Shown piece by piece: positions 17,572 through 64,000 of a stretch of DNA of 64,000 nucleotides. A model generated the notes under the pieces. The model made no database searches, had not been told where the DNA came from, and saw nothing but the letters and a program-made list of their open reading frames with translations. Every line of letters starts with the position of its first letter. The first letter of the stretch is position 1. This stretch comes from Dehalococcoidia bacterium. Lineage in GTDB: Bacteria > Chloroflexota > Dehalococcoidia > GIF9 > UBA5629. A program made the translations under genes and the position numbers. Where the stretch lies: NCBI GenBank assembly GCA_034429855.1, contig DAOUFT010000073.1, forward strand, positions 4,961 through 68,960. Direction: 5' to 3'.

Positions 17572-17601
17572 GACTTGTCGGCTTCTCCTGATCAGGCCGG
17601 G

Positions 17602-19044: not shown

Positions 19045-19138
19045 CTTATTTGTAGCTGCTGAGAAAAGGGTGGGTCAAGGCATTATACAATTTCCATTTC
19101 CCCTGTCAATATACCTGTATGAACAACATTTATATCTA

Positions 19139-20488: not shown

Positions 20489-20666
20489 CCCCCTTTGTCC
20501 GTCCGGCCCAAGATGGCCCTGCAGGTGGCGGACTCCGTCATTTTAATCCACGGTGTTACAAAAAACAACTTTTTTGTATAAATTGTTTAGCTCCAGCTAC
20601 GGCGTCAGTATTGTGCTGCTCCTTCGGCTGAGTTATACTTACCATAACGCGCGATGTGAGAAGTTG

Positions 20667-38393: not shown

Positions 38394-38400
38394 GTTAACA

Positions 38401-46003: not shown

Positions 46004-46008
46004 CTTGC

Positions 46009-47058: not shown

Positions 47059-47128
47059 GGCTCTGCTAACCTCCTGTGCCCTAATTATGTAATTATTTTC
47101 TATCCCGATTATACGCTTTGTTGCCGTG

Positions 47129-48328
47129 CTATATAGTGGGCCTGAAACGTGAGGGAGATAATAGTCTGGGTGTCTGGTGGATCAGCGTACCGCTGAACAT
47201 GGTGAGGGCTCTCTGCCTGATTCGGCGCTGAGGTCTCTCGCCGGTTGCCATCTGCACAAGTTCGAGCAGGTGATAAATCTGCTGGGCTCCCGGGTACAAC
47301 AGTGAACCGGAGCCGAGCATTTGCAGGCATCCGGCGCAATAGACGCAGAGTATATCCGCATTCGTCCGTTTGGCCTCGCCCAATCTTTTCAGCGTGGAAC
47401 GTGTAAGTTCGATGGTGTTATAGCAGCTTTCTATACTGAAGCCGGCTCCGATGCCGCAACATACCATTCTTTCCCGGCTGCGCGGCATTTCGATCACATC
47501 AACCCCTATATGATTGAGTATCCGGCGCGGCAGCTCTAGATAATCAGGCTCCAGAAACTTGGAATAACAGGAATCCTGCACTGTTGCTGTCAAGTTGAGT
47601 TTTCGCTCTACCTTGATCCTGCCGCTCTGCAACTCCTCCCAGAGGTAGCGCACAAGGGGTTTGAATTTAGCATCGAATTTAATGCCCAGGCGCTCGGGCA
47701 TAACCCTGGTGAAGAGGAAGGTGCCTGCTGTGCACATCATAAGGATATTTTTGGCGCCCATATCTTTAAAGCGTGTCTGCATGCGCTTGCCCTGAGCTTC
47801 CGCCAGGTCGAAACAGCCGGTGCGGAAGTAGGTTTCAGCGCAACACCAGGAGAGTCCGCCTCGAATTGGTATGCTGGGCAGCAAGGATGTCTGCGTGAGG
47901 TAGGGGACGGTGCAGACATTGCAGCCGGGATAGATGAATTCCTCGCAGCGTGACGTATCGTCCCAGCTGGCCAATCTGGCCTTCTCGTCTGCAGGCAGGC
48001 GCTGTGTAACATAGCTGCGGAAATTCAGCGGCTCCAACGGCTGAAAATAACGCGCCCGTTCCGGAAGGCCGCGGCTGCGGTAGACCTCCCACCAGTGATG
48101 CACGATGGTCTCGCATGGATTGGCCTGATTCGGACAGTAGAAATCACAGTTGAAACAGCCCGTGCAGGCTTTGGACACATAAGAACTGATCTCGCCCCGG
48201 TTTATTTTTAGCTTTTCCTGTTTGGCAATTTCCAGCGGCAGGTTGAGCTCCGGACAGCGCGACAGGCATTCCCCGCAGAGCATGCAGTTCTCTATATCAT
48301 GAAACTGATATTCGCCCTTAGCTGCCAT
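47129..48328 (-). CDS. HdrD-like (Fe-S)-binding protein with a CCG domain (paralog)
   Basis: CMLCGECLSRCP ... CTGCFNCDFYCP ... CCGIGAG ... CAGC. Confidence 0.7.
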   Translation of the reverse strand: MAAKGEYQFHDIENCMLCGECLSRCPELNLPLEIAKQEKLKINRGEISSYVSKACTGCFNCDFYCPNQANPCETIVHHWWEVYRSRGLPERARYFQPLEPLNFRSYVTQRLPADEKARLASWDDTSRCEEFIYPGCNVCTVPYLTQTSLLPSIPIRGGLSWCCAETYFRTGCFDLAEAQGKRMQTRFKDMGAKNILMMCTAGTFLFTRVMPERLGIKFDAKFKPLVRYLWEELQSGRIKVERKLNLTATVQDSCYSKFLEPDYLELPRRILNHIGVDVIEMPRSRERMVCCGIGAGFSIESCYNTIELTRSTLKRLGEAKRTNADILCVYCAGCLQMLGSGSLLYPGAQQIYHLLELVQMATGERPQRRIRQRALTMFSGTLIHQTPRLLSPSRFRPTI

Positions 48329-49691
48329 TCTTCACGCTCCTTCTTAAATATATGATCGACCTGACGGCAAAATGCAGCATGCCAAGAACCAGCCTGTTAT
48401 TGAAGGCCGCACTTTTATAGAGTCTGTTGAAAAACCTCGTCAGCCGTGTTGATCCCGAGCCGATATCTTCAGGTAATAGCTCGCGGTCAAACAGGTTTAA
48501 ATCTATATGGAATCGGCGGCGGGCAGCGCTGCTGAAGGCCATGCGCAGGATATTGGCTGTTATAATAGCGATGATCTGAAAGGCTCGCTGACGTGTGCGG
48601 TGCAGAGGTTTATTTCCTCTTGCCAGATCAACCAGCTCAAGCAGGTGGTAAAGCTCCAGCTTGCTGCCGTATAGCTCCCTCACAACCGAGAATATGAAAT
48701 AGCAGGCGGAGCAATATGTCACCAGACAATCTGCGCCCGTCTGCTCGGCTTCTTTAAGACGTTTGGATCCATGCTCGATCAGGTCCAGCAGTCTGAATCT
48801 GCCGGCTGCAGCTCCGAACCCGCAGCAAAGCGCGTCCCCACAATTATGCGGCATCTCTACCACGTCGGCTCCGCAGGCTGATGCTATTTCCCGCGCTGCC
48901 TGCCATAAGCTGTCCCCCTCGCTCTTGGAGAAGCAGTTGTCATGTATGGCGACGCGTCGTCGGAAGGGTGTGGTAAGCGTTAGATTGCCTGAATGTAATT
49001 GCTGCAGAAGCCATTGCTCCAGTGTAATGATCTCGGTGTCGAAACCTATAGCGAATTTTTCAGGCAGAATGCGGGTCAGCATGGCGTGTTCTGCCGCCAT
49101 CATGGTCACAACTCGTCGGGGCTTCAATTCACCTAACACTTTTTTAACCCGCAGTCCGGCTTGCTCAACGACATCCAGCAACCCTAGTTGATAGATATGC
49201 CCTCCGCTGCACCAGAGGCGTTCATCCCCGTAGATCGTTAAATCTTTCAGGATAGTGTTTGCAGCCAGATAGGGTGAAAAAGAGCTGAAACAGCCGGTCA
49301 GTAAAATCTCTTTTCCCTGCTTCCCTGCCGTCCTCCGCCAGGTTCCGATCTGTTCTTGCTCATCAGGGGGAAGCAGGGGGTACAACTGGTTCCAGATGGA
49401 AGATGGATCATCCGGTATCACCATGCGTGCGATAGCCGGCAGGCCCAGCCTTGAATAGCGCTCATGCCAGCGCAGCAGTATCAATTCGTAAGGATGGCAG
49501 TCGTTAGGGCAGTAAGAATTACATGAAAAGCAGGTGGTGCAACGGTCGAGTACAACGCTTTCAAGACCGCGGTTGAGCCGATCCTTGGCTGCGCGCGCCG
49601 TCTCCAGTTTGAGATTCAGGACGGGACAAGTGGAAAGGCAGGTGCCGCATAGCTGGCAACAACCTGCATCGATAAAATTTTGATTGACCAC
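48318..49691 (-). CDS. HdrD-like (Fe-S)-binding protein with a CCG domain (paralog with an extra ~60-aa C-terminal tail)
   Basis: CQLCGTCLSTCP ... CTTCFSCNSYCP ... CCGFGAA ... CSAC. The tail overlaps the next gene start by 11 nt. Confidence 0.65.
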   Translation of the reverse strand: MVNQNFIDAGCCQLCGTCLSTCPVLNLKLETARAAKDRLNRGLESVVLDRCTTCFSCNSYCPNDCHPYELILLRWHERYSRLGLPAIARMVIPDDPSSIWNQLYPLLPPDEQEQIGTWRRTAGKQGKEILLTGCFSSFSPYLAANTILKDLTIYGDERLWCSGGHIYQLGLLDVVEQAGLRVKKVLGELKPRRVVTMMAAEHAMLTRILPEKFAIGFDTEIITLEQWLLQQLHSGNLTLTTPFRRRVAIHDNCFSKSEGDSLWQAAREIASACGADVVEMPHNCGDALCCGFGAAAGRFRLLDLIEHGSKRLKEAEQTGADCLVTYCSACYFIFSVVRELYGSKLELYHLLELVDLARGNKPLHRTRQRAFQIIAIITANILRMAFSSAARRRFHIDLNLFDRELLPEDIGSGSTRLTRFFNRLYKSAAFNNRLVLGMLHFAVRSIIYLRRSVKNGS

Positions 49692-49877: not shown

Positions 49878-51482
49878 TTATGCTTCCCAGCGGATGAACT
49901 GCCCTTTTATATCCAACATGGCATTGACTATTAATTCAACCATGCCGCCGTAATGTATGCCATGCTTTTCAGTGAGTTTATAACGTGACAATAGATCGCG
50001 TATCATCCCCTTACAATTGGAACAGGGAGCGCATACGTACTTGTGAACTTCGGGACTCATCACATCGCTGAACGTTGTTAGAATCTGCTTGAGTTTCATA
50101 CGGCCGGCCACCGATGATCTCCAATCGGAGAAGTTATTCGAGTCCATGATGGCGAAACCGCTTCCACCGCCGCAGCAATAGTTATCCACTCCGTGGGGTT
50201 CCATTTCGCGGAAATCAGGGCATATTTTTCTGAGGATGCGGCGTTGCGGCTCGACGATCCCACTCAGACGTACCAGATTGCAGGGATCATGTAACGTTAC
50301 AGGGAAGTTATTTTTAGACCTGTCCAGGTTAATTCTACCCTTTAATACGATATCCTCCAGCAGGGGTATTGCGCTCTCGCGTGGTATATTCAAATCGCCG
50401 GTTAATACGCGGTCCGATACCACCAGCATCGCCTTGTGGGCATGCCCGCATTCTCCGACCATCATGCGCTTAACCTTGAGGTCCCGGGCTGCCTCAGCGT
50501 GGCGAACTGCTATGCGAGCCAGCTGAACGTCATCGTACCAGACACCATAATTGACAGCATCATAGGCTACCAGTTTGCTTGAAAGAGTCCAATCGATGCC
50601 GGCGGCTTCAAATATGATAGCGAAGGCCTCAACATTTTCCGGCCAGGAGATAAACTCGCCGGCATTATGCAGTAATAATATGTCGGCACCCTCTTTATCA
50701 ACTGGTATGCGGATGGGTTTGCCGGTTATCTCCTCAAGCTCTCCCTCCATGAAGTTGATGAAGCTGGCCAGGGCTTTGGGTGATGTGCCCGTGCTCGACC
50801 CGACTTTAAGTTGCTGGACGGTGCCCAGCTGGTGCAGCTCCTTGGGCGCTATGCCCATCTCCTGACTGAAAAGTTTGCGCAGCTCGTGTGTGATCAGGCC
50901 GTTGTCTACACCGATGGGGCACGACTGTGCGCATCGGCGACATAGGGTGCAGCGGTAGGCCAGCTCTGCCAGCCTGGCTACAGTCTGATAATTGAGCTCA
51001 ATATCGCCTCCTGTGAATTTGGAGAGAAGTTTGCCCTCTTTCTTGACGTATTTACGTATGATGCGCCGAAGAATCTCAGATCGGTAAGTGGGACGGTATA
51101 TCTCCTGCCTGCCGCTCTCGGTGTATATGGGGCATGCTTCCGAGCAGTTCTGGCATTTAGCGCAGTTTTCCAGTGAGAGCATCAACGGTTGGAGAAAGGT
51201 CCAGTTGTCCTGCTTCGACAGAAGTTTTCTCAGGCCGGTGATGAATTTTTCGACGAATTCCTCTTCTCCCTGCTTGGTCTGCGGTTTGATCAGCCCGATG
51301 GCTGATACACCATCCAGAGAAGTATCGAATCTGGCCCCCTGCTCGCCGGTCAACTGTTTTATACCCGGTTCATCCACAGGATCATCGAGCGGGGGAGGAA
51401 GATTGCTGAGGTCGGCCTTGTCGATATCAACCATCCGACCTTCAACCTTACTGATGTCTTTGAGGCGAATATTCCTCTTCAT
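49878..51482 (-). CDS. dsrK: DsrK-like (HdrD-type) cytoplasmic catalytic subunit of a membrane-bound heterodisulfide-reductase-like complex
   Basis: CAKCQNCSEACP ... CTLCRRCAQSCP, then a CCG domain (CCGGGSG ... CAPCSNC). It overlaps the dsrM-like gene by 4 nt and is adjacent to dsrC. Confidence 0.7.
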   Translation of the reverse strand: MKRNIRLKDISKVEGRMVDIDKADLSNLPPPLDDPVDEPGIKQLTGEQGARFDTSLDGVSAIGLIKPQTKQGEEEFVEKFITGLRKLLSKQDNWTFLQPLMLSLENCAKCQNCSEACPIYTESGRQEIYRPTYRSEILRRIIRKYVKKEGKLLSKFTGGDIELNYQTVARLAELAYRCTLCRRCAQSCPIGVDNGLITHELRKLFSQEMGIAPKELHQLGTVQQLKVGSSTGTSPKALASFINFMEGELEEITGKPIRIPVDKEGADILLLHNAGEFISWPENVEAFAIIFEAAGIDWTLSSKLVAYDAVNYGVWYDDVQLARIAVRHAEAARDLKVKRMMVGECGHAHKAMLVVSDRVLTGDLNIPRESAIPLLEDIVLKGRINLDRSKNNFPVTLHDPCNLVRLSGIVEPQRRILRKICPDFREMEPHGVDNYCCGGGSGFAIMDSNNFSDWRSSVAGRMKLKQILTTFSDVMSPEVHKYVCAPCSNCKGMIRDLLSRYKLTEKHGIHYGGMVELIVNAMLDIKGQFIRWEA

Positions 51483-52405
51483 TTCTCTGTATTACCGGTG
51501 GCGCCGCTGCTTTTCACCTGCTCGGACCAGCTTTGTCCTGTCTGTATATGCGGTGCAGACCAGCCGGCTGACTGATCAAGCTGTGCCTGCAATTTACGCT
51601 CGAGACCGGTGCCTGGTTTGTTTGGTTCATCGTCCCAGCGTACCTTGTGATAGGTGAAATATTTGGCTACATAGTGCATCATGCGAGTAAACGGCATATA
51701 CGCCAAGAAAAGGCATGAGAGCACTATATTAATTGTCATTATAAGGCCTATTTGTGGAGAGTCGAAAGTGAGCAGGCTTTTAATAAAGCCGCGCGCTATG
51801 TTAAAGGAGGGATCTTCGATAATCCAGAAAAGAAGACCGGTCAGGAAAATGAATAATATGCCTGTGAGATTGAAATAGTCAATGGGCGCAGTGTAATTTC
51901 TCAGGTCTTCATCGTGAGTGCGTTTTATTAGCAGACCAATGGTTCCGAGGACGCCAAGCATAAAGGCGGCAACGCCGGATATGAGAGTAATGTAGTATAT
52001 CAGCTGGCTCCACACATCAGGCGACACCGCGTTAATTGTCAAACCGTTCAATGTAATGATTGAACCCAACAGTAGCATTACTGCCCATACCACCATCAGG
52101 AACAATCCGAGATGGAAGGGATAGACAAAGCTCCAGAATCGGCGGTTGCTGAAGAAATACTCGCGAAAAAACATTATCTCTCGCAGGAACACGGTTGATT
52201 CGCTTATCAAGTTTATTTTACGTGGCCGGTGCCACCAATCTTCCTCTTCCAAGTACGATCCGCCATAGGGCTTGCCCACTTCGTGCGCGACGGGATAAAG
52301 CTCCCAGCGCAGGTGGACGGGCAGCGAGGCGTATTTGTATGCCCTCCAGATGATACCGGTGACGAAAATTATCAGACAGATATATGTGAACAGTAATAGC
52401 CACAT
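51479..52405 (-). CDS. dsrM: DsrM-like NarI-family membrane di-haem cytochrome b subunit
   Basis: N-terminal YKYASLPVHLRWELYPVAHE is NarI/HdrE/DsrM-type, with about 5 TM helices and conserved His residues. Length is 308 aa. Confidence 0.7.
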   Translation of the reverse strand: MWLLLFTYICLIIFVTGIIWRAYKYASLPVHLRWELYPVAHEVGKPYGGSYLEEEDWWHRPRKINLISESTVFLREIMFFREYFFSNRRFWSFVYPFHLGLFLMVVWAVMLLLGSIITLNGLTINAVSPDVWSQLIYYITLISGVAAFMLGVLGTIGLLIKRTHDEDLRNYTAPIDYFNLTGILFIFLTGLLFWIIEDPSFNIARGFIKSLLTFDSPQIGLIMTINIVLSCLFLAYMPFTRMMHYVAKYFTYHKVRWDDEPNKPGTGLERKLQAQLDQSAGWSAPHIQTGQSWSEQVKSSGATGNTEK

Positions 52406-52417: not shown

Positions 52418-52735
52418 TTATACGCAGCCGGTTGGTTTAGGCAGGCCGGCTACTTTGCATCCACCCTTGGCCGGTCCTCCGGGGAAAAGCTTGTAAATGG
52501 TCTTCAGATCGAAACCGGTCTGTTTGGTTACCATGCGGATAGGCGGCGCGATGCCGAATTCCAGAAAATAGTTGCGCAGGTAATTCACGATCTTCCAATG
52601 GTCGTCATTCATGGGATAGGCGTCTTCGGTTTTGGCCAGGTCTTCTGCAACTTCTTTATTCCATTTCTCCGGCTCCTGGATGAAACCGTCCTCGTCAACT
52701 TCAATTTGCTGTCCACCGAGTGTTACAATTGGCAT
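52418..52735 (-). CDS. dsrC: DsrC (TusE/DsrC family), dissimilatory sulfite reductase co-substrate protein
   Basis: Length is 105 aa. The C-terminal arm CKVAGLPKPTGCV carries both conserved cysteines, including the penultimate Cys. Confidence 0.9.
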   Translation of the reverse strand: MPIVTLGGQQIEVDEDGFIQEPEKWNKEVAEDLAKTEDAYPMNDDHWKIVNYLRNYFLEFGIAPPIRMVTKQTGFDLKTIYKLFPGGPAKGGCKVAGLPKPTGCV

Positions 52736-52917: not shown

Positions 52918-54336
52918 TCATATTAGTGCTTTGATTGCATTCATTTTATGCGATAAAGAGAGGTTGACAAAATCGCCGGCCCAACCGGGTGCAGCCAGCG
53001 CATGTAAATGCATATAGGTGGCCAGTGTATTGTTGATTGCCAGTCCGTCAGTGCGGCCGTCAATGCCGTGACCGCGTCTGACATCGAATTTGGCATTCGC
53101 CGCTGTGTGACCGGTCAGCCTGGAGTAATGGAATTCGTGCCCTTTTAGTATGGCGCCCGGACGGAAAAAGGGATTGCCCTTTCTGGCTTCCACCACCATG
53201 TAGCCGTGCCCCTGGGGTCTGTCGATTATTTCTACTTCCTCATTAAAGACACCTGCCATGTGGTAGCGTCTATTGCCCTTGACAATGTTTCGGCACAGGT
53301 ACATTAAACCCGCGCACTCGGCATAAATCGGTAGGCTCCGCTGCGCGGCCCGGGCTATATCTCTTCTCAATCGGGCGTTGGCCTCAAGCTCGGCCGCATA
53401 AAGCTCGGGGAAGCCTCCTCCGATATAAAGGCCGTCTACATCCGGGAGACAGTCAGTGAATGAATTTATGAATACAAGATGGGCGCCGTTGTTCCGCAAC
53501 GCTTCCAGATTGTCAGGGTAGTAAAAAGAAAATGCTTTATCGTAAAGGACGCCTATGGTCACATTCGGGCCGATGGACTGTTTAGATACTCCACTGCCCG
53601 CACAGAAATCTAAAGGTTCGTACCCTCTAACCCCACATGTTGCCGCGGTTTTAGCTATGTCATATACGCGTTGGATGTCGATGTTGTTTTCTACTACGAC
53701 GCAGGCCCTCTGGATTATATCTGCTGAATCATCCTGTTCGACGAAAGGCACTATGCCGATATGTCGTTCCTGAAGAGAGAGACGCTTGTCCGAGGGAATG
53801 CAGCCCAGTACTGGTACGCTGCAGTATTTTTCAATGGCTGTGACCAGTTTGCTAATGTGACGCAGTCCTGCCGTGTTATTGAGTATTACACCTTTAATTC
53901 CAGTGCCCGGTTCGAAGTTCATATAACCTGAAACCATAGCGGCTGCGCTGCGTGTCATGCGGGCCGCGTTGATTACTAGTATCACCGGGGTTTTAAGCAG
54001 CCTGGCCAACCAGGCAGAACTTCCGACACCGTCCTCGCTGGGGCTGTCGTATAACCCCATGCTGGCCTCAATGAGCGCAATATCCATGTTATCGCAGCCC
54101 CGCGAGAATGCTTGATTCAGGGCTATTTCACCGAACATAAAAGGGTCAAGGTTGCTGCAGATATTTCCCGCGGCCGCAGCCAGCCATGATGGATCAATAT
54201 AGTCAGGCCCTTTTTTAAAGGGCTTGACCTTTAATCCTCTTTGACGGAGGGCCGCACAAAGCCCCATAGTGACTGTGGTCTTGCCTGAGCGCCCCTGTGG
54301 GGCTGCTATCATTAAAGATGCTACAGCTCTGGACAT
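52918..54336 (-). CDS. dsrN: Cobyrinic acid a,c-diamide synthase homolog; in this context a DsrN-type sirohaem amidase
   Basis: N-terminal P-loop domain AAPQGRSGKTTVTMGL plus a C-terminal glutamine amidotransferase domain. Length is 472 aa. It lies downstream of dsrABD. Confidence 0.75.
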   Translation of the reverse strand: MSRAVASLMIAAPQGRSGKTTVTMGLCAALRQRGLKVKPFKKGPDYIDPSWLAAAAGNICSNLDPFMFGEIALNQAFSRGCDNMDIALIEASMGLYDSPSEDGVGSSAWLARLLKTPVILVINAARMTRSAAAMVSGYMNFEPGTGIKGVILNNTAGLRHISKLVTAIEKYCSVPVLGCIPSDKRLSLQERHIGIVPFVEQDDSADIIQRACVVVENNIDIQRVYDIAKTAATCGVRGYEPLDFCAGSGVSKQSIGPNVTIGVLYDKAFSFYYPDNLEALRNNGAHLVFINSFTDCLPDVDGLYIGGGFPELYAAELEANARLRRDIARAAQRSLPIYAECAGLMYLCRNIVKGNRRYHMAGVFNEEVEIIDRPQGHGYMVVEARKGNPFFRPGAILKGHEFHYSRLTGHTAANAKFDVRRGHGIDGRTDGLAINNTLATYMHLHALAAPGWAGDFVNLSLSHKMNAIKALI

Positions 54337-54345
54337 TCAGTTTGC

Positions 54346-54546
54346 TCAAGCTTTTAATTTGACGTAGGAGGTTTCAAGATACAAGTATTCTATCTTTCCT
54401 TCCTTTGCCAATTCACCGATGGCCTTGTCCACAATAGGCTTGTCCACCTCGATAGCTCTGGCGACATCGCGGTTTTTAGCCTTGCTGGTGGTCGATAAGT
54501 ACTTGAGGATCTTTTCTTTAATCTCTTCGGTCACTCCTTCTGTCAT
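54346..54546 (-). CDS. dsrD: DsrD, small winged-helix protein of dissimilatory sulfite reductase operons
   Basis: Length is 66 aa, Lys-rich and directly downstream of dsrB. EIKEKILKYL ... KIEYLYLETSYVKL fits the winged-helix DsrD pattern. Confidence 0.65.
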   Translation of the reverse strand: MTEGVTEEIKEKILKYLSTTSKAKNRDVARAIEVDKPIVDKAIGELAKEGKIEYLYLETSYVKLKA

Positions 54547-54558
54547 GGCTCAGCCTCC

Positions 54559-55623
54559 TTACCAGCGAAATTGCGTCGTGGTGCGGTAGGTATCTACTGC
54601 GTGAGTGAAATCATCGATATGATGCTCGGTGAATTCTATTCCGGTCAATTTAAAAAAGCTTTCCCAGCCGATACGCTCGATCCATTCACCCAAGCGTTCT
54701 TCCTGCCGGGCATTCTTGGCGTAGACTTCAACGATATTCTTAATGGCATTCACAGCCTCAGGCCAGCGAGGCGGGTTGTTGGGAAGATAGGGGATGGCCA
54801 GGCGTGAGAACATGGGTGCGCTGCGGGCATTGGAAACCTTGCCGCCCACGTATATTGCCACGCCGTCTCCTGTGCTGTCGGCCAGCGGCATGGCCGGGCA
54901 GACTGTGAAGCAGTTGCCGCAGTACATGCATTTTTCATCATTGACCACCAGACCTTTTATATTAGGGTCGGGGCTCTTGCGGATGGCTCCCGTGGGGCAG
55001 GCCGCCATGGTAGTCGGTATCTCGCACATTGCACTCAGCTTGGAGTTGTCCACCTTGGGGGGTTTCGTATGTATGCCCACTATGGCTATGTCCGAACAAT
55101 GAACCGCACCGCACATATTGATGCAGCAGGCCAAAGCCACGCGTACCCTGGCCGGCAGGTTCATACTGGTGAAATAGGGATATAGCTCATCCATGATGGC
55201 TTTAACCAGGCCTGAGGAATCGGTGGCTGCACTGTGGCAGTGAGCCCATCCCTGTGTGTGTACTATATTCGAAATAGATTTACCCGTGCCGCCCACCGGC
55301 AGTCCGAGCTTCTTGACCGCTTCGATTATGGGCTCCACATTCTCTTGCTTGGGAGTCATCAGTTCTATGTTGTACCTGCTTGTGAAGCGTAGATGACCAT
55401 CGCAATATTTATCTGCTACATCGCATATGTCGCGGATAAAATCAACGCTTACCAGCCTTGGAGAACCCGCTCTCACCGTCCACACTTCGTCGCCTGTTTC
55501 GGAAACGTGTTTGAGCACACCTGGCTTCACTATTTCGTGGTACTTCCATTTTCCGTAGTTCTTCTTGATAACCGGGGGGAGCATTTTCCTGAAATCCGGA
55601 GGACCTATATCACTTTTACCCAT
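54559..55623 (-). CDS. dsrB: Dissimilatory sulfite reductase beta subunit
   Basis: SiR ferredoxin-like and sirohaem/[4Fe-4S] binding regions; inserted ferredoxin [21 protein letters not shown]. Length is 354 aa. Confidence 0.9.
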
Positions 55624-55643
55624 CGCTGCGCTCCTTAAAAAAT

Positions 55644-56813
55644 TTAATCGAAGAATACATAGGGATTGGATCGGGGTTTGTATACCATCTGCGGAGTGGG
55701 TTTAATACCGATTGCCCGCAGAAAAGCTCGCATTCCCAGACGTTCAATTAGTTCCGCTACCCTTTCACGTGTTCGACCGTTCTCATCCCACCATTCCCAT
55801 ATTTTACGTAATAACTCCTTGGTCTCGTCGTAAGGGGGTTCCATCTTCATGAAGGGAACCAATACCCACGACAGGTAAGCACCCTTGATTATAGGGGCCT
55901 TGCCGCCTATCAGAATGGTGGCTCCCCTATCCAGTCCCGGCCTCAGCGCTTTGGGCATTTTGTTGATGCAGTGCATACAGCGCACACAATCTTCAGCCCT
56001 AAGATTGAGCTTCTTCTTTTTCTCGTCCCAGTCCAGCGCTCTGGTCGGACACTTATCTATGACGATGGTTCTAATATCGAATCCGCTCTTTACGTAATTA
56101 CGCACCTCGTCCTGGTCGATTCGCAGCGAGTCACGCCATGTGCCGATGATAGTGAAATCAGCTCTGGCTATAGCAGCAACACCGTCATTGGGACAGCCCG
56201 ATACCTTGATTTTAAATTTATAAGGCCATCTGGGGCGGTGTAATTCATCCTGAAATTCCTGTGTCAGGTTATTGCATATATCCAGTGTATCGATGCAAGA
56301 CCATTCGCACCTGGCCGGTCCAACACAGGCGCTGGGGGTACGCAACGCTGAACCGGAGCCGCCTAGGTCGAACCCGGCCTCCGTCAATTCATCAAAACAC
56401 GGCTGCAGGTTCTGGGTATTGGTTCCCAGAAGAATGATATCCCCCGTGGAACCGTGGAAGTTGGTCAGTCCACTGCCGTGCTTCTCCCAAATATCGCATA
56501 CTTTGCGTAAAGCCTCTGTGGTATAAAACCAGCCGGAGGGCATGTTGATGCGCATGGTATGGAACGCCTCTACATTGGGGAACTGCTCCGGCACATCGGT
56601 ATAGCGCCCGATCACCCCCCCACCGTAGCCCGTTACTCCCACTATGCCACCATGCTTCCAATGAGTTATACGGTCTTTAAACGATAGTTCCAGCACACCC
56701 AGCAGATCACCGGCTGCAGCGTTGTTCTTGGCAGCCCGTTTGATCTCCTTTATATAGCTGGGCCATGGGCCATACTCCAGATTGTTGATTAAGGGTGTGT
56801 CTCTGTCCGCCAT
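55644..56813 (-). CDS. dsrA: Dissimilatory sulfite reductase alpha subunit
   Basis: N-terminal [19 protein letters not shown] ... [20 protein letters not shown]; ferredoxin insert CPTRALDWD ... [21 protein letters not shown]. Confidence 0.9.
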
Positions 56814-57030
56814 TTACTGCACCTCCTGATAATATAATCCACCCGACTCCGATATTAGAATGATAACACTTCCAGGCACAGATGCGCCCGCGCCCACTTT
56901 ATTTGTCGACAGTTAAATTATACATTATTTGTATAATTTGTAAACTGGTATAATTAAGTGCGGGATTTCAGATTATCGGGCCACCCCAATATAATTTTAT
57001 CAGCGGACTGAGAAAGGGGGAAATCGGTCA

Positions 57031-59700
57031 ATGCACGAAACTGTATATTCGGCAACCGAATCGAAGAACTCGCTGCAAACCCTGCCGCGGCTAAAAAAAT
57101 TGAGAGAAGATATTCTCAACTCTCCTTATCACGTCTGTACACAGAAGGCGTCGCTGCTTACCTGCTATTACTCAAGCCATATGCGGCGCGATGTATTGGA
57201 TAAGCTGCTTTCCTCCGTTCAATACCGCTTTTACCGTCGCAGCCTTGAAAAGTCAGCCAAATCTATTCCCCAGAAAAGCTGGCAGGTGGCTGCCAACAAC
57301 CGTATCAACTCCTTTCTGCTCAAGCGGCGCCGAGTTACACAGGGCGACCCGATCATGCGGTGTGCCGAAGCTTTCAGATATATTCTGGAGAATATGGAGC
57401 TAAAGGTGTACGACAGTGAATTGATCGTGGGAAATCCTTCGGCCTGGCGCGTGGGTGCTCCCATACATCCCGATCTGGGCGGATTGCTGATGCTGCCGGA
57501 GATAAAAGGCATATCCTCACGTATGAATAATCCCATGAAAATCGAGCCTGCTCAACTGAAAGAACTTGAGGAGGATATTTTCCCATTCTGGTTTAACCGG
57601 TCTGTGCTTGCATTGACGCCTCTGATGAGCAGCGATCCAGACCTGTTTAATACCATGCTGGAAGGCAGGTACTTCATACTGACGCAGTTCTCGGGAATTT
57701 CGCATGTAACTCCCGATTATCCAACCGTGCTAAAAAAAGGATTCAACGGTATAGCACGGGAGGTCAGGGCAAGACTGGATGAAATAAGGGCAGCTCTGGA
57801 AGAATTGGTTTCGGACGGGTCTAAGGACCCATCACTATATGTTGGTGCGGATCTTCAGATCCACCCTGTAGTTAATAAAACACGGGAGTCGTATCTGCAT
57901 CTCAACCAGAAGTTATCCTTTTATAAAGCAGCCCTGGTGTGCGCCGAGGCTGCAGCCGATTACGGTAAACGCTGGAGTAAATTTCTTGAACGGGAAGCTG
58001 CAGCAACAGTGGATGAAGTGCGCAGACAGGAGTTGCTCCGATTGGCGCAGGTATTTAACCGCGTGCCTGCCGAGCCGGCCGAAACCTTGTATGAGGCGCT
58101 GCAATGCGTCTTTATCACACATGTCATGTTGCACTACGAAAGCTTCCAGCACGGCATCTCTTTCGGACGTATGGACCAGTATCTTTACCCTTACTATAAG
58201 CGTGATATCGAATCCGGCCGGCTCACCCGCTCCGAAGCGGGCGAATTACTGGGGTGTTTCATAGCCAAGGCGGGCGAGCTGCTGCCGCTCTTCTTCGACC
58301 GTGCCACGGAGTACTTCAGCGGCTTATCCTCGGCCTCGGGTATCACCCTTGGGGGACGTACCGCCGAAGGCAAAGACGGTGTAAATGATCTGTCCTTCCT
58401 GTTTCTGCAGGCTTATGACCAGGTCAGGCTGAGGCAGCCGAATTTTCATGTCAGGATCAACCAGGATACTCCAGTCGAATTCACTGACCTCTGCTGGGAG
58501 TTGCTTAAGAAAGGTGGGGGATTGCCAGCCTTCTTCAACGATGACGAGATACCGCTGGCGCTGCAGAGATTCGGCATCGCTGAGAAGGATGCGCAGGATT
58601 ACTCAATCGTCGGCTGTGTCGAATGGGGTGTGCCGGGTAAAAGCTTCCCGGCGGCGGGGGCGATCTTTATCAATATTCCCATGGCCCTTCACCTGGCTCT
58701 GCATAACGGCATGTATAACGGCCATCGGTTTGGACCGCAAACCGGTGATATCCAGGCTATGAAAGATATGGAAACACTTATAAATGCCTTCAGGATACAG
58801 CTTGAGAATATGGTTAAGCGAGCGACGGAGGGCAATACCGCTATTGAGCGTGCACATGCCATATTCCGTCCCACGCCATTTTTATCGACGGTTGTCGATG
58901 GTTGTATAGAGAAGGGTTTGGAGATAAATGCAGGCGGCGCCAGGTACAATTCCACCGGCTGCCAGGGTGTGGGCCTCGCCGATACCGTAGATGCGCTGAC
59001 TGCCATCGAGCAGGTCGTGTTTAATGAAGGCAGGCTTTCTCTGCAGGAAATGATACAGGCTGTGGATGCCGATTTCCTGGGATATCCGGAACTTAATGCT
59101 CTGATCCTGAACCGTGTACATAAATACGGCGAAAATGAGGAAAGACCCAATTACTACGCCGGACTGGTTTCCGGTATATATACAGGCCTGGTAGCTCAAT
59201 GCAGCAATCCCCGAGGAGGCCAATACTATCCCGGATTCTGGTCCATGACCACGCATCAGGGCTTCGGTGCGCGCATGGGCGCATTGCCTGGAGGGCGCCG
59301 GGCCGGGCAGCCGCTGGCCAACGGCATATCGCCCTGCAACGGCCGCGATAGAAATGGTCCCACTGCCTCGCTGTCTTCAGCCGCCTGCGTTGATAACAGT
59401 CTTGTATCCAACGGATATGCGCTCAATGAAAAGCTCGACCTGGCGCTGGTTAAAGATCCCTCGCGAAACCGCCTGGTAGAATCGTTGATCTTTGGTTTCT
59501 TTGCCAGCGGGGGTATGCAGGTGCAGTTCAACGTCATTGATCCTGCCGTTCTGATCGATGCCAAAGAACACCCCGATCAGTACCGCGGCCTGGTTGTTCG
59601 GGTATCCGGATATTCGGCCTATTTCAACGATCTGACGGAATCGATGAAGGATGAGCTGATACAGCGCACGGCGCACGATATCAACTCTTGTCTGTGTTAG
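57031..59700 (+). CDS. Glycyl radical enzyme (PFL2 / glycerol-dehydratase-like family); substrate not assignable from sequence
   Basis: Length is 889 aa. Glycyl radical motif RVSGYSAYF near the C-terminus; Cys loop VGCVEWG. RBS AGGGGG. Confidence 0.85.
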   Translation: MHETVYSATESKNSLQTLPRLKKLREDILNSPYHVCTQKASLLTCYYSSHMRRDVLDKLLSSVQYRFYRRSLEKSAKSIPQKSWQVAANNRINSFLLKRRRVTQGDPIMRCAEAFRYILENMELKVYDSELIVGNPSAWRVGAPIHPDLGGLLMLPEIKGISSRMNNPMKIEPAQLKELEEDIFPFWFNRSVLALTPLMSSDPDLFNTMLEGRYFILTQFSGISHVTPDYPTVLKKGFNGIAREVRARLDEIRAALEELVSDGSKDPSLYVGADLQIHPVVNKTRESYLHLNQKLSFYKAALVCAEAAADYGKRWSKFLEREAAATVDEVRRQELLRLAQVFNRVPAEPAETLYEALQCVFITHVMLHYESFQHGISFGRMDQYLYPYYKRDIESGRLTRSEAGELLGCFIAKAGELLPLFFDRATEYFSGLSSASGITLGGRTAEGKDGVNDLSFLFLQAYDQVRLRQPNFHVRINQDTPVEFTDLCWELLKKGGGLPAFFNDDEIPLALQRFGIAEKDAQDYSIVGCVEWGVPGKSFPAAGAIFINIPMALHLALHNGMYNGHRFGPQTGDIQAMKDMETLINAFRIQLENMVKRATEGNTAIERAHAIFRPTPFLSTVVDGCIEKGLEINAGGARYNSTGCQGVGLADTVDALTAIEQVVFNEGRLSLQEMIQAVDADFLGYPELNALILNRVHKYGENEERPNYYAGLVSGIYTGLVAQCSNPRGGQYYPGFWSMTTHQGFGARMGALPGGRRAGQPLANGISPCNGRDRNGPTASLSSAACVDNSLVSNGYALNEKLDLALVKDPSRNRLVESLIFGFFASGGMQVQFNVIDPAVLIDAKEHPDQYRGLVVRVSGYSAYFNDLTESMKDELIQRTAHDINSCLC

Positions 59701-59703
59701 GTC

Positions 59704-60342
59704 TTATTCGGACAGTGGAAAATAGTTGTCCAGATCGCGCCGTCGGACCTGCCTAACCGCCTCTTCCATCCTGGCCACGAACTCCTTCGCCTCTGGATTC
59801 TTACCGGCAAGCTGTAGAGCCGCCCGGTTGACCTCTTTTTCGGCTGCGCTCAATCGGCTTAGAAACGATTCGAATGAGGCTCGGTCCGCATATGCGGCCC
59901 TGACCATCTCAGGATAGGTTTTACCCTCGGATGTGATTAATTTTTGATAGTGATCGATCAACAGGCGCACTTCCAGTATCTGTTTCAAACGCACCTTCTC
60001 CGAATAAACGCCTTTCCTGTCGGCGCTGAGGATCGAAGACGTTCTTTGCTCCACCTCCGCCACACTCGCTTCTTTAGTAAGCCCGGATCGCAGCATGTTG
60101 CCGGCTGCCTCCAGCGCAAGCTTCTTGGTGAAAACGAAATTGAGTGTAAAGGCTTCTTTGGAACGCTGATGTTTGAGCAGGTTTATGATAAAGAGCGGCG
60201 GAAGCAGGAAATCCCAGACCCCTACTGCCATTGTACCGATTACATCGTTGGCCACTGCCCTGGCTGTCTCCCGTTCTTCGCCCTGGATATTTTTTATCTT
60301 GGTATCCAGCACAGTGGGGAGGATCTCTCTCAACACGCTCAT
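59704..60342 (-). CDS. Hypothetical protein (212 aa), convergent with the GRE gene
   Basis: Clean ORF with no recognisable motifs. Confidence 0.35.
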   Translation of the reverse strand: MSVLREILPTVLDTKIKNIQGEERETARAVANDVIGTMAVGVWDFLLPPLFIINLLKHQRSKEAFTLNFVFTKKLALEAAGNMLRSGLTKEASVAEVEQRTSSILSADRKGVYSEKVRLKQILEVRLLIDHYQKLITSEGKTYPEMVRAAYADRASFESFLSRLSAAEKEVNRAALQLAGKNPEAKEFVARMEEAVRQVRRRDLDNYFPLSE

Positions 60343-60446
60343 GGGTCGAAATATATCACACGTATTCCGAGCCGGTCAAAGGCCGGGCGGATTATTTGGA
60401 TATTGTGTTAGAATTCGTTTAGAGGATTGCTTGGAGGTTAAGACTG

Positions 60447-61541
60447 TTGCGGCCTCGTATTATCCAGGTTGAAGTATCCACCAGGTGCCAGCTTCGCTGC
60501 ACCTTTTGCCCGCATACGCTGTTTCATGACCGGTGGATCGCAAAGGATATCAGCTGTGAAATCTTTTCTAATATCCTTCCGTATGTGGGTAAAGGATTGC
60601 TGGTGCACCTGCAGGGATGGGGTGAGCCATTGCTTCACCCGCAGATATGGGATATGGCGGCGGCGGTCAAAGAGAAGGGAGGCAGAGTGAGTATGACCAC
60701 AAATGGCCTGCTGCTGGATAATGACGCCGTCCGGAATATATGCGAGATTGGCTTCGATTTCATTGCGATTTCCTTGGCGGGCGCCAGATCAGCTGTACAT
60801 GATTCCCTGCGTATTGGATCGAGCCTTGCGTATATCTGTGAAAACATCGCTCGGCTGAGCGCAGCCAGGTTTCACCCGCACATACATTTGGTCATGCAGA
60901 TGATGAAACCGAATATCGCCGAGCTGCCTGCGCTGGTGGATCTGGCGGCAGAATTGAAAGTCGACAGGGTAATTGCACCCAACCTTGATTACATAACGGA
61001 TGCGAAAACGGAGCAGTTGAAAGCCTTTAGTGCTATATCTGATCCCAAACTGAAACACATTGTCAGGGAAGCGCAGCTGCGGGCGCAAAAAATAGGGATC
61101 CCATTACATGTATTTCCATTGCAGCCAAGTGAAAATTTTCCTGTTTGCAGTGATGATCCTCTGCACAACATCGTGGTAAGTGTGAATGGCGAGATCTCTC
61201 CCTGTGTATACCTCTGTCTACCAATAGAAGGCAGTATTCCCAGATGGGTTCAGGGTGAAACACATTTCGTCGATCGCTTCATCTATGGGAAAGTCGATGA
61301 CGGACTGCATGAGGTGCTGGGAAACAGAAGCGCAGAGCAGTTCATGGCTGCATTTGAGCAGCGGATTCAATCCTCCAAATTCAATGCGGCCGAATCAATG
61401 GCGATTTTAACTCTGCCCGGTTTACGCAGCGCACGTAAAGCATTGCAGCATGCAAATAGTCGAAACCAGCCGGAGCACCCGATCAAGATTCCGGATGCGC
61501 CACCTCAGTGCAGTACATGCTACAAGCTGCTGGGAATATAA
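60447..61541 (+). CDS. Radical SAM protein (not a canonical GRE-activase architecture)
   Basis: VSTRCQLRCTFCPH (CxxxCxxC) ... LQGWGEPLL ... TTNGLLL. It lacks the clustered ferredoxin-type Cys motifs of GRE activating enzymes. Confidence 0.65.
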   Translation: MRPRIIQVEVSTRCQLRCTFCPHTLFHDRWIAKDISCEIFSNILPYVGKGLLVHLQGWGEPLLHPQIWDMAAAVKEKGGRVSMTTNGLLLDNDAVRNICEIGFDFIAISLAGARSAVHDSLRIGSSLAYICENIARLSAARFHPHIHLVMQMMKPNIAELPALVDLAAELKVDRVIAPNLDYITDAKTEQLKAFSAISDPKLKHIVREAQLRAQKIGIPLHVFPLQPSENFPVCSDDPLHNIVVSVNGEISPCVYLCLPIEGSIPRWVQGETHFVDRFIYGKVDDGLHEVLGNRSAEQFMAAFEQRIQSSKFNAAESMAILTLPGLRSARKALQHANSRNQPEHPIKIPDAPPQCSTCYKLLGI

Positions 61542-61599
61542 AAGAAAAAAATGGTTATTCAGGAGGGGCTCATGAGCCCCTCCTGAATTGTCCTGTCGG

Positions 61600-62901
61600 T
61601 TAATCGGGGAGTATGGGGGGCACAAAGAATACTCCGGACCATAGTATCCAGACGATGAGCAGCGTCCACACTACGTTGAATCCCTGCCCTATCCAGTATA
61701 CGGCTGCCGGTTTTCCGCCGCCCACTGATAGCAATTCCTTGAAATTAGTCTCCAGTCCGATGCAGACAAAGCAAAGGGCAAAGAACCAGGTACGGTAGGT
61801 TGTCAGCAGGCCGGTGATGGTTGCCGCTGATTTGGCTCCCATGACGGGCTCGATATAGAAGGAGGCTATTAAGGAGGCGATGATAAAGCCTACGATGAAT
61901 TTGGGGAAACGGTACCATATCTCCATAAAGGAGGGTCGTTCGCTGGCTGACTTTTTATCCAGCTTTAAAGTCGCCCATACCGCTAGGAAAAAGGCAGCGA
62001 ACCCGATCAATATATTCTGAGCCATCTTAACCAGTGCGGCTGTATCGAGCGAGGCCTTGCTTTTCATGACTTCGCCGGCTGCCACCACCGCACCGGTATT
62101 GTCGATCGTTCCGCCCAGCCAGGCGCCAGCCATATTGGTAGGCATATTAACTGCCTTGGCTATGGGAGGCATGACTATGATCATGATAACTGCGCCCACC
62201 AGCAGCCAGGCAATGATATAGCTGGTTTCTTTGGGATCACCCTGTACAGCGCCGCCCGCTGCAATCGATGCCGACACGCCGCAAATGGACACGCCCGTAG
62301 CCATCGTGCTGGAGAATCGTTCGGCCATTCCGAACCTTCTGCCCAGCCAGTAAGTGAAAAACCAGACGGCGGCCACTACCAATAGAGCCTGCAGCATGCC
62401 TACTCCGCCCGCCTTTATGATAACTGAGAAAAGTATGGTTGCGCCCATGCACACAAGGCCGATCTTGATATAATACTCCGTCAGAACGGCCGGTTTCAGC
62501 CAACCGGGTAGTCCTACAGTGTTGCTGATCAGCAGACCGAAGATCAATGCCCAGATAACATACTCCAAACCCCAGGCGTTGATAACGGATTGCTTGCCTA
62601 CGAAAATCGCCAGCCAGGCGAGGATAAAAATAACGATAAATGCGGGGACAAAACGCTTAAGGTCCTTTTTCATAAAGATTAGGCCGATTAAACATAGTAC
62701 GGCCAGCAGAACGAATATGATCAGAGTGTCCCAGATAGTAGCGATACCCGACGGGAAGGCTTTATCGATGGTTGGCCATGTGCCGAACTTGGGACCTGCG
62801 GGCAGTATTCCGATCATGGCTAGGATCAGTATGATAAAGCCGAGCCAACATGCCCACCAGTCCTCTTTTGTCCATAATGAAGACCAGTCGATTTTCTGCA
62901 A
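61600..62901 (-). CDS. Polytopic membrane protein, YeiH/UPF0324-like putative transporter
   Basis: Length is 433 aa with about 11-12 TM segments. VSICGVSASIAAGGA resembles the YeiH-family SICGxSA motif. Confidence 0.45.
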   Translation of the reverse strand: MQKIDWSSLWTKEDWWACWLGFIILILAMIGILPAGPKFGTWPTIDKAFPSGIATIWDTLIIFVLLAVLCLIGLIFMKKDLKRFVPAFIVIFILAWLAIFVGKQSVINAWGLEYVIWALIFGLLISNTVGLPGWLKPAVLTEYYIKIGLVCMGATILFSVIIKAGGVGMLQALLVVAAVWFFTYWLGRRFGMAERFSSTMATGVSICGVSASIAAGGAVQGDPKETSYIIAWLLVGAVIMIIVMPPIAKAVNMPTNMAGAWLGGTIDNTGAVVAAGEVMKSKASLDTAALVKMAQNILIGFAAFFLAVWATLKLDKKSASERPSFMEIWYRFPKFIVGFIIASLIASFYIEPVMGAKSAATITGLLTTYRTWFFALCFVCIGLETNFKELLSVGGGKPAAVYWIGQGFNVVWTLLIVWILWSGVFFVPPILPD

Positions 62902-63089
62902 CCTCTCACCTCCTATTATTATGAATATAAATGCCTTCTAGATTAAATGAATGAATTCGGAATTATTCAAAAGTGAAACAATTGTTAAGTCTATCACCTC
63001 CTAACCTGACATTGCCTGGCCGTGAACTACTTTATACAATATCAGGATGTTGCTGTCAATAAAAGCAGGCAGCATAGATTAATTATGTT

Positions 63090-63917
63090 ATGAGCCGAAT
63101 TGAGGTCGTCGCATTTGTTACCGCGCTGGTGGCGCTTCAGCTTGCTCTGGTTTTTTACGTTTGGGGATTTATCTCAATTCATACCGGGAAAAGCCCTCCG
63201 GACAAGGCTGTCTCGCGTTGTTCCCTGCCTGTTCTCTTGATTGCCTGGCTGGCGCTCACCCTTTCTCTTGTCCTGCATGCCGTTCAGGCCGGTCATATCC
63301 CCGCCACCGACATGTACGAATTCTCAGTCTCCTTCGCATGGGGCGTGCTGACAGCTGTAATGGTTTTCAGGTTGAAGCAAAAGAACGACATGGTTAGTGC
63401 CGCGGGTGCGCTGACTTCTCTCGCATTGCTGATCTACGCGTTCACACTGCCTGTTCAGCATCAGCCGCTATCACCGATTTTGAACCAGACCTGGCTGCTG
63501 CCCCTCCATGTTTCCTTCGCCATCATCGCTTACGGCTTGTTTGCGCTGGGATTTGTCAGCGCTGTGCTCTACCTGGCAGGGCAGAGATATGCGGCTTCCT
63601 TTATGCCCTCGACGACCACGCTTGACCGGTTGGGATACCGCTCGTCTTTGGTTGGATTCTGTTTCATGACACTGGTAATTATCATCGGCTCAGTATGGGC
63701 TAGAATAGCCTGGGGCAGCTACTGGTCATGGGATCCCAAGGAGACCGCTGCACTTGTTACCTGGCTGATCTATGCGTTCTATCTGCTCACAAGGTGGACA
63801 CTCGCCTGGAAGGATTCACGCAACGCCTGGTTCCTGGTAGCCGGCTTCCTGGCGGTGCTGCTAACATTTTTCGGTAACCTGTTCTTCGGCGGGCTGCACA
63901 GCTATGCAGGAGGGTGA
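63090..63917 (+). CDS. ccsA: CcsA/ResC-type cytochrome c biogenesis (haem-handling) membrane protein
   Basis: Trp-rich WWD motif WGSYWSWDPKETAALVTWL with flanking conserved His residues. Length is 275 aa. Confidence 0.75.
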   Translation: MSRIEVVAFVTALVALQLALVFYVWGFISIHTGKSPPDKAVSRCSLPVLLIAWLALTLSLVLHAVQAGHIPATDMYEFSVSFAWGVLTAVMVFRLKQKNDMVSAAGALTSLALLIYAFTLPVQHQPLSPILNQTWLLPLHVSFAIIAYGLFALGFVSAVLYLAGQRYAASFMPSTTTLDRLGYRSSLVGFCFMTLVIIIGSVWARIAWGSYWSWDPKETAALVTWLIYAFYLLTRWTLAWKDSRNAWFLVAGFLAVLLTFFGNLFFGGLHSYAGG

Positions 63918-64000
63918 TACTGGCGTATAACCGACGAGCAAGCTTCTCTATGGTAATCAGGGCATATCAGTCTAACGGCCAGCCAGGGATAATATCATCT

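Follow-up and report, generated by a model that had tools for sequence, protein, structure and literature searches.

The window analysed here, a 64-kb stretch of DNA from a Dehalococcoidia bacterium (contig DAOUFT010000073.1), encodes an 889-residue protein that belongs to the superfamily of glycyl radical enzymes (GREs) of the pyruvate formate-lyase-like type, and whose gene stands back to back with dsrA. The explanation that we favour, with about even confidence, is that this GRE is a functional eliminase with dehydratase-type residues, activated in trans and probably acting on a substrate larger than a C3 diol. It would belong to an uncharacterised subfamily related to PFL2 of Archaeoglobus fulgidus (AfPFL2), and its position beside dsrA would be specific to one lineage, in which the two genes are perhaps co-regulated. 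Ranking by sequence makes AfPFL2 the closest solved relative, and among enzymes whose function is known the B12-independent glycerol dehydratase (GD) and propanediol dehydratase (PD) come nearest. From the evidence given below we infer dehydration chemistry, a larger substrate and activation in trans.

57031..59700, + strand: GRE open reading frame, 889 aa, eliminase-type subfamily (domains, motifs, alignments, AlphaFold2 model and the ratio of nonsynonymous to synonymous substitution rates, dN/dS)

Classification and active site

In a Pfam profile search the protein is matched by PF02901 (543 bits) and PF01228 (92 bits). It has the glycine loop RVSGYSAYF at residues 857-865 (RVSGYSAY at 857-864) and the cysteine loop GCVEW at residues 528-532, both motifs being invariant across 118 homologues. 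A preliminary description of this DNA had recognised an 889-residue GRE of the PFL2 type here, and the domains and motifs bear this out. The Cys-x-Glu motif is characteristic of the 1,2-eliminase and isomerase classes of GREs (PMC13450708), and on this motif Cys529-Val-Glu531 places the protein among these classes.

When solved structures in the PDB are ranked by sequence, AfPFL2 comes first (524 bits), followed by GD (473) and PD (457), and then by the choline lyase CutC (about 410-426), the hydroxyproline dehydratase HypD (407), HpsG (362), the isethionate sulfite-lyase IslA (327) and IseG (326). Benzylsuccinate synthase (BSS) and (1-methylalkyl)succinate synthase (MASS) score 199-234 bits. 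The AlphaFold2 model of the protein, built with 64 homologues, has a mean predicted local distance difference test (pLDDT) of 90 and a predicted TM-score (pTM) of 0.92, and its TM-scores to solved GREs are 0.9 and above. In a Foldseek search with this model, GD, PD and AfPFL2 take ranks 1-10, HpsG, IseG and IslA ranks 38-44, and BSS and MASS ranks 45-50. None of the NCBIfam equivalog models reaches its cutoff on the protein. The broad PFL2-3 subfamily model TIGR01774 stays just under it (658.9 against 678.2); by this score and by the replacement of three GD residues described below, the protein departs from the GD and PD group itself. HypD was set aside on NF043068 (470 against 1100) and on Ser221, which stands where HypD has Arg156, four residues before the histidine of strand β1. 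CutC was set aside on TIGR04394 (440 against 1050) and on His225, found at the common β1 site where CutC has Asp216. HpfG, the dehydratase of 2,3-dihydroxypropane-1-sulfonate (DHPS), was rejected on NF048009 (455 against 1000) and NF048011 (437 against 1000).

Since AfPFL2 was once proposed to be an X-succinate (alkylsuccinate) synthase, a hydrocarbon-activating enzyme of this kind has to be considered. This would be very unlikely. Apart from the role suggested for the closest solved relative, what speaks for it is the occurrence of XylR/V4R regulators, a FadR-like TetR protein and an enoyl-CoA hydratase in some of the neighbourhoods. However, the cysteine loop GCVE has the eliminase Glu, which is absent from the cysteine loop of BSS, and both BSS and MASS are distant by score and by fold. 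Moreover, no small-subunit reading frames were identified beside the gene, dedicated models not having been used for them.

Active-site residues were mapped by HMMER alignments to GD, PD and AfPFL2, with the help of the text of the IslA paper and of the motif table in its Fig. S3 (PMC8473560). According to a 2026 review, all GRE C-S lyases anchor the sulfonate by two Arg and one Gln, which are R189, Q193 and R678 in IslA (PMC13450708). IslA-Q193, CutC-D216 and HypD-H160 occupy one site on β1, and IslA-R189 and HypD-R156 a common position four residues before it (PMC8473560). In the GRE of the window, the β1 motif FSGISHVT has Ser221 at the site of R189 and His225 at that of Q193. The β8 motif YYPGFWSMTTH has Gly735 at the site of R678, Trp737 at that of V680 and Met739 at that of F682. 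Thus, none of the three sulfonate anchors is found (0/3), and across the 118 homologues the corresponding positions hold Ala or Ser, His (118/118) and Gly (118/118).

The preliminary description had been drawn towards a sulfonate sulfite-lyase role, and had named a comparison of active-site residues with known GRE subclasses as a way to refute it. By that comparison the proposal falls: the triad is replaced by S221/H225/G735, and IslA, IseG and HpsG are the most distant of the eliminases both by sequence and by predicted fold. As judged from alignment and model, the protein is not a sulfite-lyase of the IslA/IseG/HpsG type. The accompanying caveat, that other GRE subclasses had to be kept in mind, was correct. 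The catalytic residues match those of diol dehydratases that cleave C-O bonds.

C433, E435, H164 and H281 of GD (1R8W) correspond to C529, E531, H225 and H374, and the histidines of β1 (His225) and β2 (His374) are invariant or nearly so among the 118 homologues. GD residues S282, Y339 and D447, which we take to be the glycerol-contacting residues of the 1R9D structure, are replaced by G375, A435 and G543. With Gly and Ala in place of the residues that would grip glycerol, the pocket probably takes a substrate bigger than a C3 diol. Altogether, the sequence suggests GD-like chemistry in a roomier pocket.

A catalytic cycle may be envisaged on these grounds. A canonical activase encoded elsewhere in the genome would set a radical on Gly860, from which it would move to Cys529. 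The Cys529 thiyl would then take a hydrogen from the carbon whose hydroxyl is held by Glu531. The group leaving from the adjacent position, in all likelihood a hydroxyl, would be protonated by His225, so that the net reaction would be a dehydration to an aldehyde or ketone. In GD, His164, the equivalent of His225, is the proposed protonator of the leaving hydroxyl (PMC13450708).

The same active site is found well outside the Dehalococcoidia. The motifs LTQF[AS]GISHVTPDY, FQHG[VI]SFGR, FSGLSSASG, VGCVEWG, SFPAAGA and PGFW[ST]MTTH are nearly invariant in 29 sequences of the close clade and in 89 wider homologues, which are 48-60% identical to the GRE and come from Myxococcota, Binatia, Schekmanbacteria, Desulfobacterota, Bradymonadales and other hosts. 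Proteins of the clade and of the wider set that have this common signature are very probably isofunctional.

Activation and the neighbourhood of the family

The wider family was sampled at 10 distinct loci. A canonical activating enzyme (AE) of 298-324 residues, with Fer4_12 and Radical_SAM domains and two ferredoxin clusters, adjoins the GRE gene in nine of them. In eight, a classical and an extended short-chain dehydrogenase/reductase (SDR) stand beside it; the best models for the extended SDR are the 2-alkyl-3-oxoalkanoate reductase OleD or HpnA, under cutoff. Regulators at these loci are of the TetR or of the XylR/V4R sigma-54 type, and the usual order of the operon is regulator-GRE-AE-SDR-extended SDR. 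A TauE/TSUP permease adjoins the GRE gene in 3/10 loci (L005 13639-15766, L170 11628-13755, L171 10699-11433). As these permeases are of two sequence types, their association with the GRE is probably independent. An unannotated protein of 461-463 residues with 12 transmembrane segments occurs in two of these three loci, and nrfAH and a CBS/HPP membrane protein lie nearby in L005.

The close clade comprises 27 distinct loci whose GRE is at least 64% identical to that of the window, examined with flanks of up to 10 kb on each side; its close members (71-80% identity) fall in Dehalococcoidia metagenome-assembled genomes (MAGs) among public genomes. No canonical AE was detected within 10 kb in these 27 loci, nor in the 64-kb window, so that the absence of an activase beside the gene, already remarked in the preliminary description, extends to the whole window. 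Searches of the window for the SDR, extended SDR, TauE, TetR and enoyl-CoA hydratase partners gave nothing at E < 1e-8. Since the family loci have an AE and SDRs and the Dehalococcoidia clade does not, the neighbourhood of the clade would have lost the activase and both oxidoreductases.

The gene itself shows no sign of decay. Its dN/dS is 0.07-0.19 at synonymous divergences (dS) of 0.3-2.2, and none of 13 genes has an internal stop. The low dN/dS and the intact frames indicate a working gene, and a functional GRE with no AE nearby would have to be activated in trans. A stranded, non-functional relic that has lost its activase and partners is conceivable in view of the absence of AE, SDR and extended SDR within 10 kb at the 27 loci and from the window, and of any AE on the long contigs of the clade among the matches listed. 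It is nonetheless highly improbable: constraint persists while dS reaches 2.2, the catalytic and glycine-loop residues are all invariant, and the ribosome-binding region and promoter elements are conserved as well.

Could the activase be the radical SAM protein found next to the gene? It is part of a three-gene cassette:

59704..60342, - strand: NF038143 "HYxxLL" protein, 212 aa, first cassette gene (177 bits against a cutoff of 50)
60447..61541, + strand: radical SAM protein, 364 aa, with a partial SPASM/twitch Cys pattern (CxxxCxxC at aa 14-21)
61557..61588, no strand: GC-rich, terminator-like hairpin with a 14-bp stem, between the convergent radical SAM and YeiH genes
61600..62901, - strand: YeiH/PF03601 membrane protein ("putative sulfate exporter" family), 433 aa, third cassette gene

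The hairpin is a probable bidirectional terminator. Where present, the cassette (59704-62901 in the window) always lies between the GRE gene and ccsB. Among 25 loci, the GRE-ccsB interval holds the cassette in 12, including the window, and ccsB directly follows the GRE gene in 13. The radical SAM protein, perhaps together with the HYxxLL protein, might be taken for a non-canonical activase, given that its gene is the nearest radical SAM gene, that the cassette is directly downstream of the GRE gene in all 12 loci having it, and that no canonical AE is near. We consider this role extremely unlikely and rejected the candidate. The protein has the CxxxCxxC motif but not the ferredoxin motif CxxCxxCxxxC, of which a real activase of the family has two, in agreement with the preliminary description, which had not found it activase-like. 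Its only Pfam match is the generic PF04055, its best NCBIfam models are SPASM maturases below cutoff, and Fer4_12, a glycine-rich motif before CxxxCxxC and matches to PflA/PflC-type models are all missing. Its closest solved relatives are the SPASM/twitch enzymes PqqE and BlsE, and a BLASTP comparison with a family AE returns E = 2.1. In addition, the wider family uses canonical AEs, and 13/25 clade loci do without the cassette, yet their GRE is intact and under selection. The other radical SAM frames of the window (ahbD, ahbC/NirJ1 and a generic 274-residue protein) are not activase-like either. The 274-residue protein (37614-38438) was tried as a PflA-like activase and rejected, having only a generic PF04055 match, Fe-S assembly neighbours and no PflA or NrdG match.

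An activase encoded far from the gene would be consistent with what is seen at other Dehalococcoidia loci. A second group of GREs, 35-39% identical and about 788 residues long, has the cysteine loop GCVELAL and the glycine loop RVSGYCAYF, which differs by one residue. It is frequent among Dehalococcoidia, Chloroflexota and Syntrophales, mostly without an adjacent AE (loci L027, L030, L037, L103, L106-L111, L114-L119 and L133, with the GRE near position 10000 where the flanks are 10 kb). Both types of GRE are found in the MAG PPR_0282, and canonical AEs are present at some Dehalococcoidia loci (L111, L161). As Dehalococcoidia GRE loci mostly lack an AE whereas some have one, a remote, shared AE is the simplest reading. 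The preliminary description had left the choice between a remote and a non-canonical activase. The first is favoured by the AEs adjacent to family GREs elsewhere and by the Dehalococcoidia loci without one. The second has lost ground, as the radical SAM gene shows no activase similarity and belongs to a cassette missing in 13/25 loci.

The divergent dsr locus

The GRE gene is divergent from dsrA in all of the 22 clade loci whose contig extends upstream, down to 64% identity, which argues against a chance arrangement. In the two deepest members of the clade, L088 and L089 (64-65% GRE identity), a FadR-like TetR gene precedes dsrA by 26-72 bp and shares its strand. It is divergent from an operon in which an enoyl-CoA hydratase gene comes before that of the GRE, with DUF1214/DUF1254 added in one of the two (L088 5925-7647; L089 6969-9983). 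The intergenic region of the window has the following features:

56814..57030, no strand: divergent dsrA-GRE spacer, 217 bp, GC 0.406 (window 0.515)
56916..56938, no strand: perfect 23-bp palindrome AATTATACA-N5-TGTATAATT, putative operator (20-locus alignment)
56917..56944, - strand: promoter-like TTTACA-16-TATAAT of dsrA, 11/12, overlapping the palindrome (consensus match and conservation)
56947-56955, + strand: candidate GRE promoter, conserved extended -10 TGGTATAAT (consensus match only)
56967-56995, + strand: candidate GRE promoter TTCAGA-17-TATAAT, 10/12 (consensus match only)

The AT-rich promoter region common to the two genes that had been announced in the preliminary description is thus recovered, with back-to-back sigma-70-like sites that match 11/12 positions towards dsrA and 10/12 towards the GRE gene. 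In an alignment of 20 clade loci, a core of about 45 bp, CAGTTAAATTATACATTATTTGTATAATTTGTAAACTGGTATAATTAA, is nearly invariant (56910-56957 in the window) and the rest of the spacer drifts, the ribosome-binding region and the promoter elements of the GRE gene being conserved. The palindrome occurs once in the window, where 0.02 occurrences would be expected by chance. It overlaps the -10 element of dsrA and the region between its -35 and -10 elements, and it abuts the rightward extended -10. A second copy is found about 12.5 kb away in relatives (L095 22395-22413, L088 19398-19416), directly upstream of an ssuA-like gene. This gene heads a leftward operon ssuACB-like-RsbRD_N-dsrMKJOP, divergent from larA in L088 and L095. 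The genes of this SsuABC/TauABC-family ABC transporter (L088 16806-19349, L095 19815-22343, L089 19015-19791) are co-oriented with RsbRD_N-dsrMKJOP and directly upstream of it; the corresponding region lies past the end of the window. The SsuA-like binding protein scores 151 bits on the family model TIGR01728, against a cutoff of 163.5.

Because it overlaps the dsrA promoter and recurs before the ssuA-like gene and dsrMKJOP, the palindrome is probably the operator of a putative regulator of both dsr operons. With two leftward operons sharing this operator, one of which starts with an importer of the sulfonate/taurine family, the GRE gene would lie within a dsr "supercluster". Matches to the palindrome that precede another GRE gene, at L044 and L103, were discarded as a different, longer hairpin with GC-rich flanks. 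In L088 and L089 the spacer has two or three palindromes of the GAACAC(C/T)GTTC type, so that at these loci dsrAB and the GRE gene may be coupled through another regulator.

Such a setting leads to an alternative that we judge unlikely, although less so than the others. The GRE would be a new sulfite-generating enzyme, either an arginine-independent sulfonate C-S lyase or an HpfG-like sulfonated-diol dehydratase feeding a lyase. The SsuABC-like transporter would import the substrate, sulfite would go to DsrAB, and the shared operator would ensure co-regulation. The divergence from dsrA at 22/22 informative loci fits this scheme, as do a palindrome that overlaps both promoters and recurs before the ssuACB-like-rsbRD-dsrMKJOP operon, and a binding protein not far under the SsuA cutoff. 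Two types of TauE/TSUP permease beside family GREs at 3/10 loci, and a YeiH gene of the "sulfate exporter family" in the optional cassette, may be counted on the same side. The pocket is also rich in Ser, Thr, His and Trp, and the periplasmic sulfate-binding protein holds its anion through hydrogen bonds alone. Finally, where dsr-carrying Dehalococcoidia obtain their sulfite is a question that has been raised in the literature (Wasmund et al., 2016; PMC4959651).

On the other side, the pocket lacks all three anchors of C-S lyases, the mapped strands show no evident conserved Arg or Lys that could stand in for them, and His is found where these lyases carry Gln; the lyases are also the eliminases most remote from the GRE in sequence and fold. 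The same active site recurs in operons that contain no sulfur gene, in hosts such as Myxococcota and Binatia, and in the deep members of the clade the GRE is accompanied by a FadR-like TetR protein and an enoyl-CoA hydratase. SsuA-family binding proteins carry non-sulfonate ligands too, and synteny within one lineage may be inherited rather than selected. The link to Dsr is circumstantial and conflicts with the residue evidence, but it leaves some likelihood to a novel sulfonate role.

For the dehydratase-type eliminase activated in trans, the history of the locus may be imagined as follows. In most bacteria, the GRE gene would belong to an operon with its activase, two SDR-type oxidoreductases and a TetR or XylR-type regulator. 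In one dsr-carrying lineage of Dehalococcoidia, it would have parted from these partners and would now lie between two dsr operons. Its promoter would thereby abut the operator and promoter of dsrA.

Several observations weigh against this explanation. AE homologues were sought with a family AE and with a Dehalococcoidales AE, and none fell on the long contigs of the clade (1,218,527; 1,208,048; 654,462; 118,812; 118,532; 97,700; 81,903 and 77,612 bp) among the best 120 of more than 7,500 matches in each search. In the wider family, the same approach did bring out AE-GRE pairs, at least 14 of them. AfPFL2, the closest solved relative, is itself of debated function. The β1 histidine is compatible with C-O cleavage but is not proof of it, and the residue mapping consists of pairwise HMMER alignments and a published motif table, with no substrate-bound structure. 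Lastly, the strict adjacency to dsrA, the shared operator, the SsuABC-like importer and the TauE- and YeiH-type transporters all point to sulfur chemistry.

The remaining dsr genes and the following gene of the window are:

55644..56813, - strand: dsrA, 389 aa (TIGR02064, 576 bits against a cutoff of 393)
54559..55623, - strand: dsrB, 354 aa (TIGR02066, 517 bits)
54346..54546, - strand: 66-aa reading frame at the dsrD position (translation; DsrD identity from position and size only)
52918..54336, - strand: dsrN-like sirohaem/cobyrinate a,c-diamide synthase (profile matches)
52418..52735, - strand: dsrC, both C-terminal Cys present (…GGCKVAGLPKPTGCV; profile match and translation)
51479-52405, - strand: dsrM-like (Pfam Nitrate_red_gam matches on orthologues)
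49878-51482, - strand: dsrK (DsrK, 327 bits, under the equivalog cutoff of 400)
63090..63917, + strand: ccsB, cytochrome c biogenesis (profile match)

A 66-residue frame stands at the equivalent dsrD place in L001, L003, L088 and L089, and in relatives dsrMKJOP, encoded on the other strand, comes after ccsB. Elsewhere in the window, hemA, hemC, a cobA/hemD fusion, hemB, hemL, precorrin-2 dehydrogenase, fused ahbAB, ahbC/NirJ1 and ahbD lie at 2640-12542. This block, complete for sirohaem and for the alternative haem route, would suit the need of Dsr for sirohaem and of DsrJ and c-type cytochromes for haem. The genes larB-larE-larC for synthesis of the nickel-pincer cofactor are at 20553-23493, and genes for a series of GlcD-like FAD proteins and HdrD/CCG-type iron-sulfur proteins adjoin dsrMK at 43464-49691. 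In relatives, larA lies beyond the second copy of the operator. The three together suggest lactate oxidation coupled to sulfite reduction. At 14624-20488 are genes for a beta-keto acid cleavage enzyme (BKACE), a 2-dehydropantoate reductase-like protein, 3-hydroxyacyl-CoA dehydrogenase, an APC-family amino acid transporter and a class-III aminotransferase. A set of BKACE, permease and SDR adjoins the family GRE in L171, a likeness to this region that is possibly coincidental. A search of 54000-64000 against Rfam yielded no credible riboswitch or known RNA, and at the hairpin 61557-61588 only a spurious, miRNA-like match.

Significance and comparison with known systems

No class of anaerobic radical enzymes is growing faster than the GRE eliminases, and a pathway has been opened by every substrate newly found for them, be it choline, hydroxyproline, isethionate, DHPS or anhydro-sugars. 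A literature search on the present subfamily, on NF038143 and on GREs in dsr-carrying Dehalococcoidia found nothing. What is new here is a large, sharply conserved and uncharacterised subfamily, recognisable by the signature LTQF[AS]GISH…FQHG…LSSASG…GCVEW…FW[ST]MTTH and by its four-gene operon, which would be the bacterial counterpart of the long-puzzling PFL2 of A. fulgidus. In Dehalococcoidia, a GRE gene placed between two operator-sharing dsr operons with a sulfonate-type importer is a candidate source of sulfite in abundant subsurface bacteria. If the sulfonate role were true, the enzyme would be the missing sulfite source, co-repressed with both dsr operons through AATTATACA-N5-TGTATAATT, and the wider family, some members of which lie beside TauE exporters, would make up a lineage of GRE sulfonate enzymes that has gone unrecognised, the third of its kind. 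If it is an ordinary dehydratase, the locus is a warning against reading sulfonate lyase function from dsr adjacency alone.

Among known systems, AfPFL2 (PDB 2F3O) is the best solved match, with about 34% identity and an rmsd of 2.4 Å to the model. It shares GCVE, the GISHV motif of β1 with its His, and an eliminase-type architecture, and its host is also a dsr-carrying sulfate reducer. It differs from the family in having Asp at the position of GD-D447, where the family has Gly, and QA instead of HG on β2. It is also about 110 residues shorter, having neither the N-terminal extension nor the 251-283 insertion. Whether it acts as a glycerol dehydratase or as an alkylsuccinate synthase is a matter of debate (PMC13450708).

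GD (1R8W) and PD (5I2A, 9RCO), next to AfPFL2 by sequence, are the top Foldseek hits (TM-score 0.93-0.95 on the target) and have the same catalytic Cys, Glu, β1 His and β2 His. In the GRE, S282, Y339 and D447 become Gly, Ala and Gly, and Y640 becomes Trp. Unlike GD and PD, it has no bacterial microcompartment or aldehyde dehydrogenase context, and the operon of its family encodes two SDR-type enzymes instead. [quoted passage not shown] In contrast to the GRE of the window, they have Arg189/Gln193/Arg678 at the positions of Ser221/His225/Gly735, and their activase is adjacent.

With regard to the locus, the nearest described case is the single-cell genome DEH-C11, also from Dehalococcoidia, in which the gene order is, like that of the window, dsrABDN-C-MK (PMC4959651). 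The paper reports no genes for the formation of sulfite from sulfonates, and neither formate lyase nor radical enzymes are mentioned in its text (PMC4959651). Whereas the dsr cluster of DEH-C11 was reported without DsrJOP, the lineage of the window has a second operon, ssuABC-like-rsbRD-dsrMKJOP, and the GRE gene lies between the two.

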